64,000 bases of DNA from a virus (IMGVR_UViG_2565956708_000007); one strand, 5' to 3'; positions 8,790 through 53,120 are shown, numbered from the stretch's first letter. The notes: a model not told the origin generated them from the sequence alone. Numbers and translations are program-made.

Positions 8790-9145
8790 TTCTTTTCACA
8801 TTCCTTAGTCCATTTTTCAATGTTCATTTTGGCAATATCAGTCATTCCATCACCTAAGAAATACTTTTTCCGGTACGTCTTGCACTTAAACCACACTACA
8901 ACAGCCACCAGCCAGAAAATAAAAGGCCATACGGCAATACCAACTCCAGCCGCGATAAAGCCCAATATCCATAAATGAAGCTCTCCAACTTCTGTTTCCG
9001 GCAATATTCTTAAAGAATTAAACAGCAGGCTGAACGAATGGTCGTATGCATTGGCAGTATAAGACATGCAATCCATATAATTAAAGTCATAGCCTGCGGC
9101 TGCCGCCCATAATGGGCGGTCAAGAAAATGTTTTAGTGTCATCAT
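8771..9145 (-). CDS. Small membrane protein (124 aa)
   Basis: hydrophobic stretch LWILGFIAAGVGIAVWPFIFWLVAVVVWF; basic C-terminus. Confidence 0.5.
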   Translation of the reverse strand: MMTLKHFLDRPLWAAAAGYDFNYMDCMSYTANAYDHSFSLLFNSLRILPETEVGELHLWILGFIAAGVGIAVWPFIFWLVAVVVWFKCKTYRKKYFLGDGMTDIAKMNIEKWTKECEKKWRKKK

Positions 9146-9151
9146 ATTAAT

Positions 9152-9445
9152 TTAAGGTTCAGACCAGTTATCTTCAATAGCAATGCTTAATCTTTGTAGC
9201 CATTCTGCTAATTTCAGCATTGCTTCTCTTTCGCTTAAACCACACGGAAAATCATCAAGCGATATTGTTGGCTTGAAGTTTCCCAAATTATCCATTTCAA
9301 CGGTCAGATTTTGCTCCAGAACGGTATTTCTTACGCGGCTATTGTGCCGAAGCAAATATACTGAACGTGATTTATTGGTTTTGTGGTCGAACGTATATTC
9401 GGTAAGTATCATCTGACTTCCGCCATGATTATTACCGCGCCACAT
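9152..9445 (-). CDS. Hypothetical protein (97 aa)
   Basis: ORF only. Confidence 0.4.
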   Translation of the reverse strand: MWRGNNHGGSQMILTEYTFDHKTNKSRSVYLLRHNSRVRNTVLEQNLTVEMDNLGNFKPTISLDDFPCGLSEREAMLKLAEWLQRLSIAIEDNWSEP

Positions 9446-9468
9446 AATTACTCCGTGTTAATTGAAAT

Positions 9469-9771
9469 TTAGCTATTAATCTTCACTTTTATCGCGAACA
9501 CCTTTACCGGTTTATCACCGAAGTGTGGATGTGTGATTGTTTTTATTTCATATCCGTTATACGGGACGTCAATTCTGCGACTGAAGTCTTCGCGCTTCGG
9601 ATATCCCTTTGTGATAATCAGGCGGTAATACTTACGGTTAACGAGGCGCTTATTCCAGTAGTCATTACACAGGCGATACTCTTCCGTTTTCTCCCCGCGA
9701 ATCATGGCATCGAAGTATTCACCTTTAACGGCAAGTTGCAGGTTAGCCATTACCTCACCTCCAGTCTCCAT
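9469..9771 (-). CDS. ASCH-like domain protein (100 aa)
   Basis: GEKTEEYR matches the ASCH GxKxxExR signature. Confidence 0.5.
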   Translation of the reverse strand: METGGEVMANLQLAVKGEYFDAMIRGEKTEEYRLCNDYWNKRLVNRKYYRLIITKGYPKREDFSRRIDVPYNGYEIKTITHPHFGDKPVKVFAIKVKINS

Positions 9772-10010
9772 ACCGCCTGACCAATCCGGCTGGCATGGGT
9801 ATCTTTGGATACTGTTCCGTCTTTAGCCAGCTCCATAAGAATTTTGCGCAAATCTGCCGAACGCCATTCTTCATCAGGAAATTCCTTCTCCATTGCCAAC
9901 CGCAGATTCCAGGTTGCCATCCTGAATGGATATTCCCCGCCGAGAGCTTTATCTTGCAGGGCAGCCCGGGAACGCATCACCTGCAAAACCTTCTCTTTTA
10001 CATCCATCAT
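9750..10010 (-). CDS. Hypothetical protein
   Basis: ORF; start trimmed to internal MMDVKEK so that it abuts the upstream gene stop. Confidence 0.4.
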   Translation of the reverse strand: MMDVKEKVLQVMRSRAALQDKALGGEYPFRMATWNLRLAMEKEFPDEEWRSADLRKILMELAKDGTVSKDTHASRIGQAVWRLEVR

Positions 10011-10900
10011 TTCGCCTCCTGCGGCGGTTCTGGTAGCGGCATCCAGAACAAGGCGTTCCCTAACCACGATAAAGTGCCGTCGCTCAACTCCACGTATTCC
10101 CCTTGTACCTGTCCTGCCATATACTCGCCGTGCTTTGAATAAATTAAAATCCAATCATCTTGAGGGGGCATTCGCTCACTACAGCTTATCCAACCATCCG
10201 GAGTTACCGGAACTTGTGGAATGGCTGTCTGCTCTCGAACGTCATTAGGCGCTATAGGTTCTGCTGCCAACTGACTGGCATATTTGTTAATGGTAACGAT
10301 AAGCTCTTGCTCAGCCTCATCCAGACAATCACCGATACCTCGCCTGTCACCGTCAAAATCATCGAAATCGGCACGAATCCTGGCAACCTTCAGGATTGCG
10401 GACAACACCTCACTAGGAATTGCCGGATAGTTGGTTGACGTTTCCGCGATTTCCCGAAAATTATTGGTTGACGAATTCTTGTTTTCCCGAAAGTTTCCGG
10501 ACTGAAGCATGGCGGCGCGGCAGGCGTTCCATATTTCGGCAGCAATATCGCGCTCGCTATCGGTTAATTTGTACGTTGAAACATAGCCAGAGAGCATTTC
10601 TACGTTTTCCGGAGTTGCTTCTTCAGGCACTACCGGTGCTGGAGGGGCGGCGTAAATGCCCTCTATCACTAAATGTTTGCGCTCAAAATCATCTGGCTCT
10701 CGATGATATACGTAACTCCAATCACCAAGGTTATCATTGCGCCTGCAACGGAAACCTATCGGCTCTGCTTCCAGCGATGCCAGAGCAATTCGTGCCAGTT
10801 CTTCCGCTTCTTCTGCTGGCAGTACAACGTTGCTACCAGGTCCGTATGTTTCGCGCCACTGCCTGATTGTCAGCAGTCGCTCTTTGGTAATAGTGATCAT
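10007..10900 (-). CDS. Hypothetical phage protein (297 aa) with N-terminal domain shared with 11775-12137
   Basis: N-terminus MITITKER...ELARIALASLEAEP...WNACRAAMLQ paralogous to the downstream 120-aa ORF; Trp-rich C-terminal domain. Confidence 0.55.
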   Translation of the reverse strand: MITITKERLLTIRQWRETYGPGSNVVLPAEEAEELARIALASLEAEPIGFRCRRNDNLGDWSYVYHREPDDFERKHLVIEGIYAAPPAPVVPEEATPENVEMLSGYVSTYKLTDSERDIAAEIWNACRAAMLQSGNFRENKNSSTNNFREIAETSTNYPAIPSEVLSAILKVARIRADFDDFDGDRRGIGDCLDEAEQELIVTINKYASQLAAEPIAPNDVREQTAIPQVPVTPDGWISCSERMPPQDDWILIYSKHGEYMAGQVQGEYVELSDGTLSWLGNALFWMPLPEPPQEAK

Positions 10901-11412
10901 GCCGCGTTTCCTTCTTTCTTATTAACAATTACACCGTCATATATTTCATTAAGGTGCCCTCTCAACTCCATGCGCCTTAATGCAGATAACATGTAATCGC
11001 ATTCAACCTGCTTATTTCCAGTAAATGGCTTATCGTCAGGATTACCCCAACAGCAATTACCCTTGGGCCACCCATGTACTTTCCGTACTCTTCCGTTAAC
11101 AACGTGAAGTAATCCCCAGCCAGGTGGTAAATCCTCAACTGAAATAATTCCCGGCTCACTAATAAAGAATCGCCAGTCGCCCATTCCAAGAGATGGATTT
11201 TTACGAAAACGCTTTTTTCTATCTGCCAACAAGTCAGCACGAGAACACTTCGCCTCTATCAGGCATGATGCTGAATTTCTGAATCCCATAGCATCTGGCT
11301 GTTCTCCGGTACTGGTTACAGCTATAAAGCGGTCATGAAAACAAACCTTGAACCCGTTGCGCTTAAGGAACTTATACGCAATCTGACAGAGTTCGCGGTG
11401 TGTTAACGCCAT
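10897..11412 (-). CDS. Hypothetical protein
   Basis: start taken at MALTHREL, preceded by AAGGAGAGTGATATGGC, the same initiation context as the gene at 12343. Confidence 0.5.
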   Translation of the reverse strand: MALTHRELCQIAYKFLKRNGFKVCFHDRFIAVTSTGEQPDAMGFRNSASCLIEAKCSRADLLADRKKRFRKNPSLGMGDWRFFISEPGIISVEDLPPGWGLLHVVNGRVRKVHGWPKGNCCWGNPDDKPFTGNKQVECDYMLSALRRMELRGHLNEIYDGVIVNKKEGNAA

Positions 11413-11413
11413 A

Positions 11414-11602
11414 TCACTCTCCTTTAGTGCGCAAGTGGTTTTTCCAGCGGTTTTGCGCCGCGCTGGGCTTTTTGCAAAAACCACAATCCATCATCCCGTA
11501 ATATTTCATCAACCCCATCCGTCGGTTGCTGAGTCTCACCCACTGCCAGACGCCAGGAGCGTTTCTACGAACTAACAGAATCTTTGCTTTACGGTTTTTC
11601 AT
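11414..11602 (-). CDS. Small basic Cys-containing protein (62 aa), uncertain
   Basis: ORF ending one nucleotide before the next start codon. Confidence 0.3.
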   Translation of the reverse strand: MKNRKAKILLVRRNAPGVWQWVRLSNRRMGLMKYYGMMDCGFCKKPSAAQNRWKNHLRTKGE

Positions 11603-11774
11603 CGCTTTGCTCTCCTGCGTCTCTTTGCTGCTCGTCGTGCCGCTGCAATACCGGTATGGCGGCGCTTTGGTGCCGGGATGATGTTGTCAGCCATCAGGAC
11701 ATGTGGCTTTGCAATTAGCGCAGAAGCCCAAAAACGAGTCGGGTACGGTAACAAGCCGAAAAATGCCACACGCA

Positions 11775-12137
11775 TTACTCACCTCCCTTACCCTGAAGCA
11801 TGGCAGCGCGGCAGGCGTTCCAGCCATCAACATAATCAAACGTATTGCTATCGTCTGGATCGATTTCATCCGGCACTACCGGCTCTGGTTGGATAGTGAC
11901 GTTGGCAAAGGCAGCACGCAAACCGGCCTTAATTTCCTCTACTTCATCAGCGCCTAGCGATGAATCTGACAATGCGTGATGGAATGCGTAAGCCATGTCG
12001 TCGTTTACTGCAACCGGTTCGGCTTCCAGTGATGCCAGCGCAATTCGTGCCAGTTCCATTTGTTCGCCACGGGTAAGCCCGTTATCAAGCGGATTTTTAA
12101 TGAATAATTCGATACGTTCTTTGGTAATAGTGGTCAT
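11775..12137 (-). CDS. Hypothetical protein (120 aa), paralog of the N-terminal domain of 10007-10900
   Basis: MTTITKERIELF...ELARIALASLEAEP...WNACRAAMLQ. Confidence 0.5.
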   Translation of the reverse strand: MTTITKERIELFIKNPLDNGLTRGEQMELARIALASLEAEPVAVNDDMAYAFHHALSDSSLGADEVEEIKAGLRAAFANVTIQPEPVVPDEIDPDDSNTFDYVDGWNACRAAMLQGKGGE

Positions 12138-12343
12138 TTGTTAATCCTCAAAACTTTATGCCCGGGCGCAAAAGCACGTGTTTTGTCTTTACTTATTCGC
12201 CACCCGTCTTTACGGGCCTCTTTTGCACAACCAGACCATGACGTACCGATATACTCACCGAAGTCTGGCACTGGATATACACCTTCCGTACACTGGCGGC
12301 AGTCACAATAGAGATGCATGGTGTAACTTGCAGCGATAGCCAT
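12134..12343 (-). CDS. Small Cys-rich protein (about 69 aa)
   Basis: start at MAIAASY with duplicated initiation context; CDCRQC and GC motifs. Confidence 0.4.
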   Translation of the reverse strand: MAIAASYTMHLYCDCRQCTEGVYPVPDFGEYIGTSWSGCAKEARKDGWRISKDKTRAFAPGHKVLRINK

Positions 12344-12344
12344 A

Positions 12345-12977
12345 TCACTCTCCTTTGATGCGAATGCCAGGGGCGCGTGGCACATTAACTTCCACGATGC
12401 GCACAGTTGGTTTGTACATCTCAATCGCAGTCAGCCAGTCAGCGCCAGTCATGCGCTTTTCTGCATCGCCATTAGTCCACTTAACCGGTACACCAATAGC
12501 CTTCATCGCGATTTCTATTTCCCCGGCAATGGCGCTTTTTCCGCAACCAGTAAAACCAGATACAACGACCAGAACTTCACCTTTGGCTGGTTTTATTTCC
12601 CGCTCCTCCAGTTCAGCAATGCGCTTACTCCCATCCGAGATAACACCTTCGTAATACTCACGCTGCTCGTTGAGTTTTGATTTTGTCTCCTCAAGCTCAA
12701 CTCTCAGCTTCCCAACCGTAAGCGCAATATCCTCGTTCTCCTGGTCGCGGGATTTGATGTATTGCTGGTTCCTTTCCCGTTCATCCAGTAGTGCCAGCAC
12801 GGTTTCTGGTCCGGCCAGAAATTTGAAGGCGTTGAGCGCATCAATATCCACACCGTAATCTTTAAGTTCCTGTTCACTTAACAAATCATCATCAGCTGGC
12901 AACATTAACAGGCGTTCCATTGCTGGAATTGCACGTTCCGCCGCCTCACGCAGTGCCTGGTAATTAATTTCGCTCAC
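12345..12977 (-). CDS. Ea22-like protein (210 aa)
   Basis: N-terminus MSEINYQALREAAE and coiled-coil middle resemble lambdoid Ead/Ea22 proteins. Confidence 0.55.
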   Translation of the reverse strand: MSEINYQALREAAERAIPAMERLLMLPADDDLLSEQELKDYGVDIDALNAFKFLAGPETVLALLDERERNQQYIKSRDQENEDIALTVGKLRVELEETKSKLNEQREYYEGVISDGSKRIAELEEREIKPAKGEVLVVVSGFTGCGKSAIAGEIEIAMKAIGVPVKWTNGDAEKRMTGADWLTAIEMYKPTVRIVEVNVPRAPGIRIKGE

Positions 12978-13708
12978 TGGTTGCCTCCTTTGCGAAGCTG
13001 GGCAGCAAAGTCAACTAACCACTCAGTCATTTCAACCTTCCCTACCAGGTCTGAACCAGGGTGCATACAGCAATCACTCTGCGCCGCTTTGAAATCCTTA
13101 TACTCATATTCTTGGGCCACCAGATTTTTTGCAGCTTCTATAGCAGCATCCACGCCCTGCGCCCGCACTTCAGCCAGGAAAGCATCGGTGGCTGGCATAT
13201 TTCCTGTTGCCTTCATGGCCTCCAAAATAACCAGAACGCCATCTCGCCCAACCACCTCAGCGATAACCTCGGTGTTGTCGCCAACAACATCGCAGAATGC
13301 CTGAACTGCCTTACGAGCCAGCTCATTCTCCACTGCCAGCGCCGTGCGATTACCCTCCAGCTCTGCAATGCGCTGTTTTGCGGCATCCAGTTCAATCGAC
13401 AATTTTTCCAACTGCTCTTGATGCTTCTTGTATTCCTGATATGCGTGCCAAGACTGACCTTTGCGCACACTATCAGTGATATCAGTAATCTGTTCTGGTG
13501 TTAGCGTGGTCAGTGGCTGTGATGGGAAAATAAGCACTTTCCCGGAATCCCAATCAAAACCAGCGTGAATTGACTGAACCTCAACTGAAGGTGTTGAACC
13601 AATGCTGCCAGGCGAATGAACAACGATTGTTACATCCATATCGCGACGATGGCTGTGGTTGTTGGACAAAATACGATTCACCAACTCAGAAAATTTGGAA
13701 AATTTCAT
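12974..13708 (-). CDS. Ea22-like protein paralog (244 aa)
   Basis: C-terminal ATDAFLAEVRAQG shared with 13992-14696. Confidence 0.5.
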   Translation of the reverse strand: MKFSKFSELVNRILSNNHSHRRDMDVTIVVHSPGSIGSTPSVEVQSIHAGFDWDSGKVLIFPSQPLTTLTPEQITDITDSVRKGQSWHAYQEYKKHQEQLEKLSIELDAAKQRIAELEGNRTALAVENELARKAVQAFCDVVGDNTEVIAEVVGRDGVLVILEAMKATGNMPATDAFLAEVRAQGVDAAIEAAKNLVAQEYEYKDFKAAQSDCCMHPGSDLVGKVEMTEWLVDFAAQLRKGGNQ

Positions 13709-14028
13709 GCTGATTCCCCTTTCTCTGCTCTCTCCTGTCGGAACATCACTATCATCAGGTCGCCTTTTGTCGCTATCCTGGCTGTTGTACCTGGTTCAAT
13801 GCGGCTAAGCTCAAATGCGTCATAGAACGCTTCTAATGCCTTCTGGCGTAGTTCCTGTTTGCGCCGTTTTTTCCACTGTTTTAGGAAAATGGAACCCAGC
13901 CATCGCCATGTGCGGGACATGATGTAAAGCCAACCGAGAAGTGCCAGACCGGTATTTAGGAGCGTATCGATCGTTATTGTCGTGTCGATATTCACTGGCT
14001 GCTTCCTTTGCGAATCTGTTCCGCCCAT
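13705..14028 (-). CDS. Small membrane protein (107 aa)
   Basis: hydrophobic N-terminal segment; basic region. Confidence 0.4.
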   Translation of the reverse strand: MGGTDSQRKQPVNIDTTITIDTLLNTGLALLGWLYIMSRTWRWLGSIFLKQWKKRRKQELRQKALEAFYDAFELSRIEPGTTARIATKGDLMIVMFRQERAEKGESA

Positions 14029-14696
14029 TCTTCAAGGGATTTCTCCGCATATTCACCAGACAGGCCATCAATCGGATGCGCTTCATTAGCCAACTCTTCT
14101 TTCGCTGACAAAATCATGCGTGTAACGTCGAAAACTTCACGCAAAGACTTATTGATAAATCCGTGATTGAACGCAGCAGCAAGACGGCTGGCGGTATAGT
14201 TAATCCCCTCGTTGCGTGCTTCCGCACGAATTTCAGCCAGAAAAGCATCGGTAGCTGGAGTTTCGCTGTGGTGCAGGGCATCGTTGATAATCATTGCAGC
14301 AACTCCGGCCTGCCCTGCATCCGTGACCGACACATGCTCAAGAGTTACGGCCATTGCGTGTTTCAGCCCGGCGTTCTCTGCCACCAGCGCCGCGAGCTTA
14401 GTCTCAAGCGGTGCTATTCGGCACATAGCATCAATATTTGTGTCCTCCAGGCGCTTAATTTCACCAAGTAGCTCCAGTGCAACCTTTGGGTTGAATGCGG
14501 CAACATAACGAGCGTTGTTCTCTGCGTTTTTCAGCCCATCAAAGCCGGTCCATTTGATAACATCTTCACATCGTTTATCACCGGGCGTATGCACAGCATA
14601 CGTACCTGTACCCGTCGAAATAAACGCGACCCATTCGCCCTGTGTTGCCTGTTTTGCTATCTCACGTAGTGCCTGATAGTTAATTTTGGTTGTCAT
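13992..14696 (-). CDS. Ea22-like protein paralog (234 aa)
   Basis: MTTKINYQALREIAKQ; ATDAFLAEIRAEA shared with neighbour. Confidence 0.55.
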   Translation of the reverse strand: MTTKINYQALREIAKQATQGEWVAFISTGTGTYAVHTPGDKRCEDVIKWTGFDGLKNAENNARYVAAFNPKVALELLGEIKRLEDTNIDAMCRIAPLETKLAALVAENAGLKHAMAVTLEHVSVTDAGQAGVAAMIINDALHHSETPATDAFLAEIRAEARNEGINYTASRLAAAFNHGFINKSLREVFDVTRMILSAKEELANEAHPIDGLSGEYAEKSLEEWAEQIRKGSSQ

Positions 14697-15571
14697 GCCA
14701 CCACCTCTTCGAATTTCAACTCCAATTGATCACCCCAGATTTCACATGACTCTGAACACGAGCCGGTATCGAATCGCCTGGTTTGCACCATCGCCTGATA
14801 CAAATTTCTGTAGTCGCTGTCGGCATACATTCTGGCAATCCCGTCAAGGCTCAGATGACCACGGTACATAACGTCTTTATTTGTCTTTCGGTGACCATCC
14901 CGGACGTGTTTACCTGTAACCAGTTCATTAAAAACCCGCATCAGACCAGGTTCGTCTTTACATGCAAGCCCCAGCTTTTGCGTTGACTTTTTGATGCAAA
15001 AAACACAGTTCCCTAGGTGCTCCGGGATTTGCAAATCAAAAGGTTGTTTTCGCCACCACCGGATAACATCCGACTTATCAAGATCTGACAGCTCTGCAAG
15101 ATACCGGACGCCCAGTTTCGGTTTCAGCCTGCGGTGTTCGTCCGCACGAATACCCAGCCATGTGATGTAATTCCCTCGCCCAAAATGGTCATCGCAATAT
15201 TTCGTGAAAGGGGTGAGTTTTAGCCTGTCAGTACAGAACGCGCCGCCGATGTATGGCGTACCGTACTTTTTAACCATGTCCATAAACGGTTTAAGCACCG
15301 GCATTCGCGTCTGAATATCCTTTGGTTCCCATTCCGTATAACCATTTGGCTGCCCAAGTTCTGGATTTATATCGACCTGCAACACCGTTAGCGGTACGTT
15401 CCAGAACTTCACAACCTCACGAATAAAGCGATACGTCAGAGGATGTTCACAGCCGGTATCCATAAAAATGAAATGGACGCTAGCGCCAGCTTTTCGCTTT
15501 GCTTCCATCAGATGAACGAGATAAGCCGATGTTCGTCCACCTGAAAAGCTGACAACTTGATGCATACTCAC
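14693..15571 (-). CDS. PAPS reductase-like (PP-loop ATP pyrophosphatase family) protein
   Basis: N-terminal SFSGGRTS PP-loop motif; 292 aa. Confidence 0.75.
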   Translation of the reverse strand: MSMHQVVSFSGGRTSAYLVHLMEAKRKAGASVHFIFMDTGCEHPLTYRFIREVVKFWNVPLTVLQVDINPELGQPNGYTEWEPKDIQTRMPVLKPFMDMVKKYGTPYIGGAFCTDRLKLTPFTKYCDDHFGRGNYITWLGIRADEHRRLKPKLGVRYLAELSDLDKSDVIRWWRKQPFDLQIPEHLGNCVFCIKKSTQKLGLACKDEPGLMRVFNELVTGKHVRDGHRKTNKDVMYRGHLSLDGIARMYADSDYRNLYQAMVQTRRFDTGSCSESCEIWGDQLELKFEEVVA

Positions 15572-15574
15572 GGT

Positions 15575-16153
15575 TTATTCCTGAATGCGCTTAAACTCGA
15601 TTACCCATACCCACGGGTTAGATAGCCAGTTCTCTTGCCCGTAAATACCGCGCCAGATATCACCGAAACCAACGCGATAAACAGCTTCCGGCGGTGTAAT
15701 CTTGTACGTCGCCGGAGATGCGCCTTCCGCTTTAGCATCTGCCTCGCTCATGTCATGCAGCCGTTCCACACGCACGTCGGTAATTTCCAGCAAAATACGC
15801 GAAGCCCAGCGCGGCATGTGAATTGATGGCGTCCACTTTTCTGATACTGGTTTATTACAAACCTCGACCGGAACCCGGTGCGTTTGTTCTGTCCAGGAGT
15901 TACGCACGCTTGCGCGATAAACCAGCGTTGCGACGTCCGTCGCTTTGCCATGTACCCGGTAGGTTTCGCGAACCCAAATACGATCGCCCGGTTGACCATA
16001 TGGACAATGCTTAGCAAGCAACTCTACGGCCACAGCCCGTCCATAGAATTTTTCTTCAACAATCCTGCGAGTCTGTGTTTTATTCCCACCAAGAATTGCC
16101 CGGACCATCTCATCGTTGAAAATCATGCCGCGCTCTTTCACTTCGTCTTTCAT
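15575..16153 (-). CDS. ASCH domain protein (likely start at MIFNDEMV near 16126)
   Basis: ILGGNKTQTRR matches ASCH GxKxxxxR signature; first gene after operator 16332-16348. Confidence 0.55.
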   Translation of the reverse strand: MKDEVKERGMIFNDEMVRAILGGNKTQTRRIVEEKFYGRAVAVELLAKHCPYGQPGDRIWVRETYRVHGKATDVATLVYRASVRNSWTEQTHRVPVEVCNKPVSEKWTPSIHMPRWASRILLEITDVRVERLHDMSEADAKAEGASPATYKITPPEAVYRVGFGDIWRGIYGQENWLSNPWVWVIEFKRIQE

Positions 16154-48653: not shown

Positions 48654-49280
48654 GTGCCTGTACTGTTAAAGGGGGACTCTAAAATGGCTGTGATTCCAAT
48701 GTCGTACTCCCCGGGTACTGTCGCTCGTCGATTTTCGATCCTGGACGGAGTTACCATCCAAGGTGTGCTTTACCAGGTTATATGGGATTCCAAAACCCCA
48801 TTTGCAGCTGTAATAGAGGCTGCGCCTTCTATTATCGATGGTGATATGCGCCATAAGGTTGTCGCTACTCTTGAACTTCAACGTCGCCCGCAGCTTGAAG
48901 GCGTACTGGTAAGGAAGTTCTGGGAGGATAGCGATGTTGCCCAGATTGAAGGTATCGTGGTTGATGGAACCGTCCGGGATGTCGGTTTAGCTACTTTTGT
49001 TTACGAAACCGTAGCCTCAAAAGCTGGTGTTGTTTTGCTCAGTGATAATGAGCAATACGAAGGTGGAAAAGCTCTTTGGCAACACATCGCCCGTCGCTCT
49101 TCCGAGCTAAAAGTGTTTATCCTTGACACCGATGCCGCTCAGTATTACCCGTTTGACGGCGAACGTGTTTGCTATGACGGGGTAAGTATTCCTGAATCCG
49201 AGATATGGAGTGAACACCCAGATCGAAGTAAGCATGGGGTTGTTCTGGTCGCTGAATCCATAATTGGAAATGCGGCATAG
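48654..49280 (+). CDS. Hypothetical protein (208 aa; likely start MAVIPMS)
   Basis: ORF. Confidence 0.45.
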   Translation: MPVLLKGDSKMAVIPMSYSPGTVARRFSILDGVTIQGVLYQVIWDSKTPFAAVIEAAPSIIDGDMRHKVVATLELQRRPQLEGVLVRKFWEDSDVAQIEGIVVDGTVRDVGLATFVYETVASKAGVVLLSDNEQYEGGKALWQHIARRSSELKVFILDTDAAQYYPFDGERVCYDGVSIPESEIWSEHPDRSKHGVVLVAESIIGNAA

Positions 49281-49462
49281 CAGTAAAAAATTCCTTGCTC
49301 CTTAAAAGGGGAGAGGGTTAATCTACGTATGCTAAGCATAGATATGGCCTCAGATTAATGTTAAGCGTCTTGCAGGACGCGTAATGTTATCTGGGGCTTT
49401 CTTCTATCTGCTTTTCGGGTAATGCCTGAAGCAGATAGCCTCAAGCACCCGCAACGATTGTA

Positions 49463-52854: not shown

Positions 52855-53009
52855 AGTTACGGCCTCACAATCAGGTTTAACAACCTGCTACCCGCTGCTA
52901 AACAGGTGGCAGGACGTGACGGGGTTAGCAGACTGGCGATTGTGAAACCAGCAGGCCGAAGCCTCCCCATCACGCCCCACCATAATTTGGGCGTAACGCG
53001 GTTTTACGG

Positions 53010-53120
53010 ACACAAAAATACCGCAATATCGGATATCTGCGGCTGTCCGCACAATCATTCAGGCTGCTAAACCCGGTCGCAGAATTTGCTACGACGGCGG
53101 AACTATAAGCCTGAACGATT
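53010..53120 (-). ncRNA. c4: c4 antisense repressor RNA region (boundaries approximate) with 3' terminator-like hairpin
   Basis: between operator 53169-53185 and icd; contains GGGUUUAGCAGCC complementary to a downstream leader element UCUGCUAACCCC and CGGCCU complementary to the icd RBS AGGCCG; hairpin plus U-run at 53010-53041. Confidence 0.45.

Follow-up and report, generated by a model that had tools for sequence, protein, structure and literature searches.

Short repeats in the small-gene block of a P1-like phage-plasmid are probably boundary sequences of exchangeable cassettes

Short conserved boundary sequences have been proposed as the homologous recombination sites behind the mosaicism of lambdoid phages (Susskind & Botstein 1978; Clark et al. 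2001, on phage HK620; both as cited in PMC3029335). Mosaicism has also been described within proteins, with Ea22 proteins combining a shared N-terminal part with unrelated C-terminal domains and with DUF551 as a portable domain (PMC10834534). The homology required by Red and by RecA is about 30 base pairs (bp), and Red can also recombine sequences that have diverged (PMC2327257); in experiments, lambda acquires prophage DNA through homologous recombination (PMC3945230). We describe here a set of short repeats in a stretch of 64,000 nucleotides (nt) from the virus IMGVR_UViG_2565956708_000007, which we call the window in its full length. The repeats lie in a block of small genes at approximately 8.1 to 16 kb, all of which are on the minus strand, and the coordinates given below for genes, junctions and linkers refer to that strand. 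A first-pass annotation had noticed an N-terminal module common to two proteins of 297 and 120 amino acids (aa) and an initiation cassette repeated before two other genes. We find that these two observations are one phenomenon, namely short linkers, and that the linkers are probably conserved boundary sequences of lambdoid mosaicism, found where exchangeable cassettes, and modules smaller than a gene, begin or end.

The most exact of the repeats is a 17-mer, AAGGAGAGTGATATGGC, present in exactly two copies in the 64 kb (0 mismatches, against 0.02 copies expected), at 11408-11424 and 12339-12355. The repeated initiation context of the first-pass annotation is thereby located, but the coordinates assigned to it (11396-11412 and 12327-12343) were 12 nt too low, and its second copy falls outside the interval 10007-12137 in which it had been placed. 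The stretch common to both copies extends to 24 nt (11408-11431 and 12339-12362, 92% identical). On the coding strand it reads AAA GGA GAG TGA T ATG GC, that is, K-G-E-stop of an upstream gene, one spacer base and the ATG-GC of a downstream gene, with an AAGGAG ribosome-binding site lying 6 nt before the ATG and inside the last codons of the upstream gene. What had been called an initiation cassette is a complete stop, ribosome-binding site and start gene junction, not an initiation context alone. In junction A (12339..12362) this reading is preceded by CGCATC and connects the end (...G-I-R-I-K-G-E-stop) of a 210-aa Ead/Ea22-like gene, U0 (12345..12977; Pfam PF13935, E=7e-38, 130.7 bits against a cut-off of 27), to the start of a 69-aa cassette gene, D0 (12134..12343). 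In junction B (11408..11431) it is preceded by CGCACT and connects a 62-aa gene, U1 (11414..11602; PHROG 1380; ending ...NHLRTKGE-stop, with R-T-K-G-E-stop inside the junction), to a 171-aa cassette gene, D1 (10897..11412). The two genes that begin at these junctions are mutually unrelated (PHROG 926 for D0; PHROG 9263 and 631 for D1).

The peptide KESDMA, said to be encoded upstream and in frame, is indeed found in mechanically called open reading frames (ORFs), but it is not coding sequence of D0 and D1; the same bases are the K-G-E-stop of the upstream gene, read in another frame. The P1-like phage RCS47 has the same extension before D0 instead of D1, since it belongs to the upstream 62-aa gene; mechanical ORF calls that run upstream through the junction are artefacts. 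A second type of junction (AAGGGAGGTGAGTAATG, 11773..11789) lies between the 120-aa gene and a 58-aa gene (11599..11775; PHROG 13831), with ...K-G-G-E-stop overlapping the next ATG; its string, AARGGAGGTGAGTAATG, joins in RCS47 an Ea22-like ORF ending AAGIRIKGGE to the same downstream gene.

The junction is reused with many partners in other genomes. An exact scan of IMG/VR with an 18-mer returned at least 120 stretches, and the 132 occurrences analysed combine at least 25 classes of upstream tail with at least 15 downstream classes in at least 48 distinct pairs; the window's pairs, U0-D0 and U1-D1, are among the common pairings in this motif-selected sample, and U1 is followed in other contigs by D0, D1, D2 or D12. 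To remove the bias of motif selection, we also gathered 80 loci through the D1 protein (80/80 of these relatives are 171 aa long and begin MALTH). Exact AAAGGAGAGTGAT was found in 71/80 of these loci, with the remainder off by 1-2 bases, and the genes preceding the junction represented at least 10 unrelated families. A comparison of 29 distinct upstream classes shows conservation back to about 29 nt before the ATG, approximately 20 nt beyond the ribosome-binding site, in two main forms: CGCGCCGCTGGCATTCGCATC-AAAGGAGAGTGATATGGC, which encodes the tail AAGIRIKGE, and CGCGCCGCCGCAGCCGGT-AAAGGAGAGTGATATGGC, which encodes AAAAGKGE. Junction A is part of a consensus linker of 30-40 nt, CGCGCCGCTGGCATTCGCATCAAAGGAGAGTGATATGGC. 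Unrelated proteins that end in the same tail, written in the same codons, require common descent of the DNA rather than convergence.

A reading by functional constraint only has points in its favor. On this reading the junction is kept as the best arrangement of stop, ribosome-binding site and start, and the protein motifs as structural necessities; the joints are made by illegitimate recombination, selection keeps genes that are intact, and the linkers play no part in exchange. The AAGGAG lies 6 nt before the ATG, stop and start are 1 nt apart, and at other junctions of the operon, too, the last codons contain a Shine-Dalgarno motif; the RNA of the junction has no stable structure, which is what one expects of an initiation region; and most phage mosaic joints have no boundary sequences, illegitimate recombination being favored in general (PMC3029335). 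Such constraint does not explain why 10 or more unrelated genes keep some 20 nt beyond the ribosome-binding site, written in identical codons, and it meets further difficulties in the recombinant products and in the synonymous sites described below; we consider it unlikely.

Of 5426 complete Escherichia coli genomes, 2870 contain the 39-nt consensus; a single genome has it at as many as 10 places, and the totals are 5550 places on chromosomes and 313 on plasmids. In species-representative genomes the 18-mer gives 58 matches in 596 Gb, against roughly 17 expected (an estimate that assumes uniform base composition); most of the 58 are chance matches that lack the gene arrangement, and the real ones are in Escherichia and Enterobacter, with a few on contigs that are probably mis-binned. 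Being near chance level in the species-wide data and real only in these two genera, the connector is lineage-specific and not a universal initiation sequence. The junction and the same cassette genes (MATLTKKERAWLNEL..., MAIAASYTMHLYCDC...) also occur together on four short contigs that were assigned to Segatella copri, Collinsella sp. and Xanthomonas pisi (L206, L215, L252 and L253), most likely as a result of contamination or mis-binning.

We then located similarity breakpoints, defined as the end-points of matches of at least 85% identity between related contigs and the window. They pile up at 12348-12371, 11400-11435, 12144-12155, 10896-10907, 10752-10763, 12000-12023, 10500-10535 and 11784-11795, which coincide with both junctions, with the starts of the 297-aa and 120-aa genes and with the edges of two of the intragenic linkers described below (linkers 1 and 3). 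Several relatives have the arrangements that exchange at these places would produce. RCS47, whose backbone is 98-99% identical, has U1-junction-D0-ATGA-N-module gene where the window has U1-junction-D1-ATGA-N-module gene, with D0 filling the window's D1 slot, a difference that appears to be a cassette replacement between two boundary sequences. One contig (L033) matches the window over 12809-12339 (95.5%) and 11431-10765 (96.1%), the two matches overlapping by exactly the 24-nt junction, and is the U0-junction-D1 product expected of a crossover between junctions A and B; in another (L035) the two slots stand in reversed order. The overlap by exactly 24 nt is what homologous crossover predicts, and it speaks against constraint as the sole explanation.

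The same holds for a cassette that is present in relatives and missing from the window. RCS47 and the plasmid pEc1077-100 carry an additional 174-nt gene (58 aa, MKNRKAKRLFLQ..., MKNRKAKRLF...; 6858-7034 of L002 and about 8111-8264 of L001, the latter being pEc1077-100), a paralogue of the adjacent 62-aa gene (MKNRKAKILLV...). In both relatives the gene is flanked by two copies of a 21-nt gene-start repeat, GATGAAAAACCGTAAAGCAAA, which lies at 11583..11603 in the window; the insertion or deletion is therefore bounded by a 21-nt direct repeat made up of the starts of two paralogous small genes, an arrangement that constraint by itself does not account for.

The linkers inside genes were found through the 297-aa gene (10007..10900) and the 120-aa gene (11775..12137). 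Both ORFs exist as described, and the N-terminal module claimed for them is confirmed: the two proteins align in BLASTP with 54/145 identities (37%, E=3e-16) through the motifs M-x-TITKER and WNACRAAMLQ, with 28% gaps. Both genes run through a head, linker 1, a body, linker 2 and linker 3; the 120-aa gene then ends in GKGGE-stop, and the 297-aa gene continues through a 33-nt tandem duplication and an acidic middle to a C-terminal DUF551. When the window is compared with itself, a nucleotide repeat does appear, but as four short islands of 23-45 nt and not as one long repeat; outside the islands the DNA of the two genes is unalignable. The islands are the gene start (10878-10900 and 12115-12137; 23 nt, 91%; the first 8 codons), linker 1 (10760-10801 and 12015-12056; 42 nt, 90%; encoding ELARIALASLEAEP), linker 2 (10619-10642 and 11865-11888; 24 nt, 83%; encoding P-x-PVVP-D/E-E, which is PAPVVPEE in the 297-aa gene) and linker 3 (10502-10531 and 11793-11822; 30 nt, 97%; encoding WNACRAAMLQ). 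At the 37 identical residues within the islands we counted 8 nucleotide differences, against 25.6 +/- 3.2 expected if codons are drawn independently from the block's own codon usage (P<5e-5), and the repeat is therefore real at the nucleotide level. The synonymous sites are much more alike than amino-acid constraint requires, which again counts against functional constraint only. The synonymous divergence within the islands (pS 0.28, dS about 0.35) at the same time indicates that the repeat is not young.

These observations bear directly on the cause proposed at first, recent modular duplication or recombination. A recent local duplication of a gene pair or segment inside the block, with copies that have since diverged, would explain why the two units are laid out alike, each with a junction, a small cassette gene, an ATGA overlap and an N-module gene, and why the direct repeats recur at a similar spacing of 931-1291 nt. 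Neither the contiguous similarity nor the low synonymous divergence of a recent tandem or segmental duplication is found, however: similarity is confined to the 23-45 nt islands, the rest being unalignable, dS within the islands is as high as that given above, and D0 and D1 are in different PHROG families. Homologues 98% identical to the 120-aa protein, furthermore, are present in other records of E. coli and Salmonella, and other phage contigs contain segments of the 297-aa gene at 96-100% identity. The order of the slots also varies among close relatives (L035, RCS47). We regard local duplication as very improbable. Recombination, the other half of the proposal, is supported, with linkers that are exactly where relatives pass from high identity to none and that have many unrelated partners elsewhere; the 297-aa and 120-aa genes are old paralogues assembled from a shared pool, not the result of a fresh duplication.

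The first of these elements, the gene-start boundary, is ATGATCACTATTACCAAAGAGCGA (M-I-T-I-T-K-E-R) in the 297-aa gene, at 10877..10900, where the start codon shares bases with the stop of the 171-aa gene (ATGA); its counterpart in the 120-aa gene is at 12114-12137. Upstream of the ATG the window's two copies are unrelated, and it is therefore the first codons that constitute the boundary. Its general form is ATGAYCACTATTACC (M-T/I-T-I-T). The start ATGA[CT]CACTATTACC was found in 91/132 occurrences of N-module genes in the collected loci, before 11 types of head, and in 78/80 of the D1-selected loci the gene after D1 begins ...GCATGA(C/T)CACTATTACC (M-T/I-T-I-T) and then splits into several heads, among them the type seen in the window's 120-aa protein.

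Linker 1 (ELARIALASLEAEPI in the 297-aa gene, at 10757..10801, with 31 similarity breakpoints at 10752-10763; 12012-12056 in the 120-aa gene) joins heads to bodies. Among 91 distinct proteins of the collected loci it connects 11 head classes with 20 body classes, the 297-aa-type head being joined to 15 different bodies. Two proteins (P0016 and P0028) carry a 297-aa-type head on a 120-aa body, and would therefore be recombinants, at linker 1, of the window's own two types. The body of the 120-aa protein (AVNDDMAYAFHH...WNACRAAMLQ; 3055 homologues of the protein) occurs in four arrangements: alone, ending in GKGE, GKGGE or GDKS and a stop; fused to DUF551; followed by other C-terminal domains; and behind an Ead/Ea22 N-terminus (P0032 and P0051). 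The DNA of linker 3 (TGGAACGCCTGCCGCGCCGC...) has the same beginning, CGCGCCGC, as the general end-of-gene connector. Other phages have GGGAAAGGAGAGTGATATGGC, GKGE-stop and the junction directly after linker 3, and in the 297-aa gene the reading frame continues past it into a longer protein with DUF551 at its C-terminus (10019..10207; Pfam PF04448, residues 236-294, 39.5 bits against a cut-off of 22, E=1.1e-9). Separate parts of the 297-aa protein are matched by PHROG 60, 14306, 924, 660, 5117 and 3323. The 120-aa protein has no DUF551 match in Pfam, though other genomes have N-modules nearly identical to its own in fusion with DUF551. It is not a broken DUF551 gene, a possibility that we ruled out: the GKGGE-stop end recurs in many genomes and forms a working junction to the next gene. 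Neither protein matches the Ead/Ea22-like Pfam family PF13935, and the neighboring 210-aa and 234-aa proteins do. Heads and tails that are encoded by adaptors and common to unrelated proteins can mislead homology clustering, and single PHROG or Pfam-like families in this region mix unrelated bodies.

The 33-nt tandem duplication of the 297-aa gene (10430-10495) encodes NFRENKNSSTN / NFREIAETSTN. Overlapping L033 matches suggest that its copy number may vary among relatives. Tandem Repeats Finder reported trivial repeats of 8-10 nt only and did not report this duplication.

Two further explanations assign a dedicated function to the linkers. Several unrelated genes have an identical sequence where their translation begins, and they could be co-regulated were the junction an operator bound by a small RNA, an RNA-binding protein or a translational repressor protein. 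The RNA of the junctions and gene starts, however, folds no better than shuffled sequences (z-scores of -0.31, +1.47, +0.75 and +1.16), Rfam has no match within 9000-16000, no candidate regulator was identified, and the conserved part is fully explained by stop, ribosome-binding site, start and tail codons; an operator is in our estimate extremely improbable. The combination of cassettes, combinatorial partners and a standard connector likewise recalls an integron, with the linkers as recognition sites of a dedicated site-specific recombinase. We found neither an attC-like site nor an integrase: self-comparison and folding (z-scores within the range just given) reveal no hairpin and no perfect or imperfect inverted repeat at the linkers, the annotation of relatives has no recombinase gene in the block, the linkers are of several unrelated types, some of them inside genes, and the linker is dispersed in lambdoid prophages that have different integrases. 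The probability of an integron-like system is close to negligible.

We return, then, to boundary sequences as the probable nature of the repeats. The linkers lie at module edges and prove, on comparison, to be conserved between unrelated flanks with combinatorial partners, and breakpoints and specific, apparently recombinant products coincide with them (this last being partly expected). They fall into three classes: (a) the end/start junction [CGCGCCGC-TGGCATTCGCATC]-AAAGGAGAGTGA-T-ATGGC, encoding the tail ..AAGIRIKGE, with stop and start 1 nt apart; (b) the gene-start boundary; and (c) the intragenic linkers ELARIALASLEAEP, PxPVVP(D/E)E and WNACRAAMLQ. With the same stretches of 20-45 nt dispersed over the prophages of one cell and over co-infecting phages, crossovers could take place inside the linkers, the candidate machinery being host RecA or annealing proteins of the phage Red-beta/RecT-like kind. 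A crossover in a linker would put another cassette, or another segment of protein, at one side of it and keep frame, stop, ribosome-binding site and start, so that the new neighbor should stay translationally coupled. We favor a mixture of causes for the persistence of the linkers, in which they aid exchange and also have a translational or protein role, with repeated homogenization.

Several points weigh against boundary sequences. The evidence for recombination at the linkers consists of comparative patterns, and the breakpoint signal is partly unavoidable, since linkers that are the sole conserved pieces oblige similarity to end at their edges. The IMG/VR loci were chosen by the motif itself, and the D1-selected set, free of that bias, is limited to a single downstream gene. 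Ribosome binding and the stop/start role suffice to explain the 13-nt core of the junction. The gene-start boundary (15-23 nt) and some of the islands are shorter than the approximately 30 bp quoted for efficient recombination by RecA or Red, and the dS of the islands means that homogenization between these two copies was not recent. The AlphaFold2 model of the 120-aa protein (from a 23-sequence alignment) has five short helices and is of low confidence (pLDDT 64.8, pTM 0.32), too poor to judge whether linkers 1-3 have a structural reason.

A bolder idea, which we hold to be possible if doubtful, is that operons of the ea type in enterobacterial temperate phages, together with the copy that P1-like phage-plasmids have captured, constitute an integrase-free cassette-exchange system, in which a small set of standardized adaptors of 20-40 nt is kept by selection for in-frame swaps of whole genes and protein segments by general or phage recombinases, with stop, ribosome-binding site and start intact. 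If so, the adaptors would be a device of evolvability, beyond leftovers of common descent or signals for translation, and the adaptor-encoded C-terminal tail (AAGIRIKGE) on unrelated proteins would be a visible side effect.

With respect to its origin, the window is a P1-like phage-plasmid, because its first 25 kb are 98.3% identical to RCS47 over 83% of their length and 97-98% identical to other Punavirus records, and because Rfam matches in the window comprise three tRNA genes, the sok antitoxin RNA and the P1 C4 antisense RNA with its a1/b1 targets (29637-31863, 49276-49450 and 52902-53108), which fit a P1-like backbone. In close relatives the block is flanked by hot/humD/phd-doc and by phosphatase/pmgS genes, and its genes are annotated as DUF551, ead/Ea22-like, eaa, ASCH and hypothetical proteins; its gene content is that of the early-left "ea / exo-xis" accessory region of lambdoid phages. 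The DNA of 9400-13000 matches 614 phage records and 3625/5426 complete E. coli genomes, always patchwise, and just one record attains 80% coverage at a single place. Most of the 16 gene starts that we checked in the block overlap or abut the preceding stop (ATGA, GTGA, TAATG, TGAtATG), and many have a Shine-Dalgarno motif within the last codons of the upstream gene. Overlapping stops and starts with embedded Shine-Dalgarno motifs are the signature of a translationally coupled operon, and we infer that the block is translationally coupled. Chi (GCTGGTGG) occurs 29 times in the 64 kb, against 1.65 expected from shuffled sequences, and P1 is known to be Chi-rich. The Chi sites nearest to the repeats are at 8905-8912 and 14381-14388; none lies between 8913 and 14380, and Chi as a cause of the exchange was accordingly rejected.

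As to the proteins of the region, all PHROG families that they match are labeled "unknown function", Pfam recognizes DUF551 and Ead_Ea22 only, and NCBIfam and PADLOC give no matches; PDB sequence searches had no match for the 297-aa protein or for a profile of the N-module. D1 has no match in Pfam, NCBIfam or PADLOC, and its PDB sequence matches are at chance level only. Inspected by eye, D1 has a D...E-x-K arrangement (PDAMGF...CLIEAKCS) that recalls PD-(D/E)XK nucleases, to which none of these four sources lends support. D1 is intact in the window, and its counterpart segment is one of three genes of the corresponding region that RefSeq calls pseudogenes in pEc1077-100, the closest plasmid (L001 7274-7408, 7742-7920 and 8693-8818; two 'incomplete, missing C-terminus' and one 'frameshifted'). 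At 14693-15571 and 12974-14696 the block also holds a 292-aa ORF that is, to judge by its sequence, a PAPS-reductase-like candidate, and a second Ead/Ea22-like gene, of 234 aa (Pfam E=8e-25, 88.5 bits against a cut-off of 27), which has PHROG 368, 492 and 614 in common with a 244-aa gene, so that further sharing of modules is likely.

The repeat that was noticed at first thus becomes a defined, countable set of linkers. In E. coli, Shigella, Salmonella and Enterobacter, it explains the reassortment of small accessory genes, and of protein segments, between lambdoid prophages and P1-like phage-plasmids. It also supplies ready landmarks to those who map recombination in the pangenomes of prophages. 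Should the linkers owe their maintenance to exchange, the old boundary-sequence model of modular evolution in phages would gain a case that is simple and can be tested. The literature that we searched, which did not include the primary papers on boundary sequences (Clark et al. 2001), did not contain the exact linker strings.

The finding is a clean, well-resolved instance of known phage modular evolution, and its nearest relatives are the boundary sequences of lambdoid phages, which it resembles in having short stretches at module edges, unrelated flanks, combinatorial partners and breakpoints at the linkers. It differs from them in that these linkers are inside coding sequence, where they give unrelated proteins a common C-terminal tail, in that some are intragenic, and in that the window's linkers are on a P1-like phage-plasmid rather than on a lambdoid phage. 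The mosaicism of lambda exo-xis and Ea22 concerns the same kind of early accessory region, and two Ead/Ea22-like genes adjoin our finding; the head and linker of the 297-aa and 120-aa genes, however, form a different N-terminal module, and the published analysis (PMC10834534) treats protein architecture, not nucleotide linkers or junctions. Experiments on relaxed recombination between phages and prophages, by Red-beta/Rad52-like proteins, demonstrate a route for short or diverged homologies, and with up to 10 copies of the linker per E. coli genome such a route may be relevant here, but these experiments used hundreds of bp at 78-95% identity (PMC2327257, PMC3945230), compared with 20-45 nt in the linkers.

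Like coupled phage genes in general, the genes at the junction have stop and start within 1-4 nt of each other, and the Shine-Dalgarno motif is embedded in the final codons of the first gene. Ordinary junctions of coupled phage operons (ATGA / TAATG / TGAnATG) are specific to a gene pair, whereas here a fixed string of 18-39 nt is reused between at least 48 gene pairs. With the cassettes of integrons, finally, the likeness is one of functional analogy only, and extends to small, promoter-less, co-oriented genes, standard connectors and combinatorial content; unlike integrons, the block has no integrase, no folded attC-like site and several types of linker, and general homologous recombination is the simplest explanation for its exchanges.

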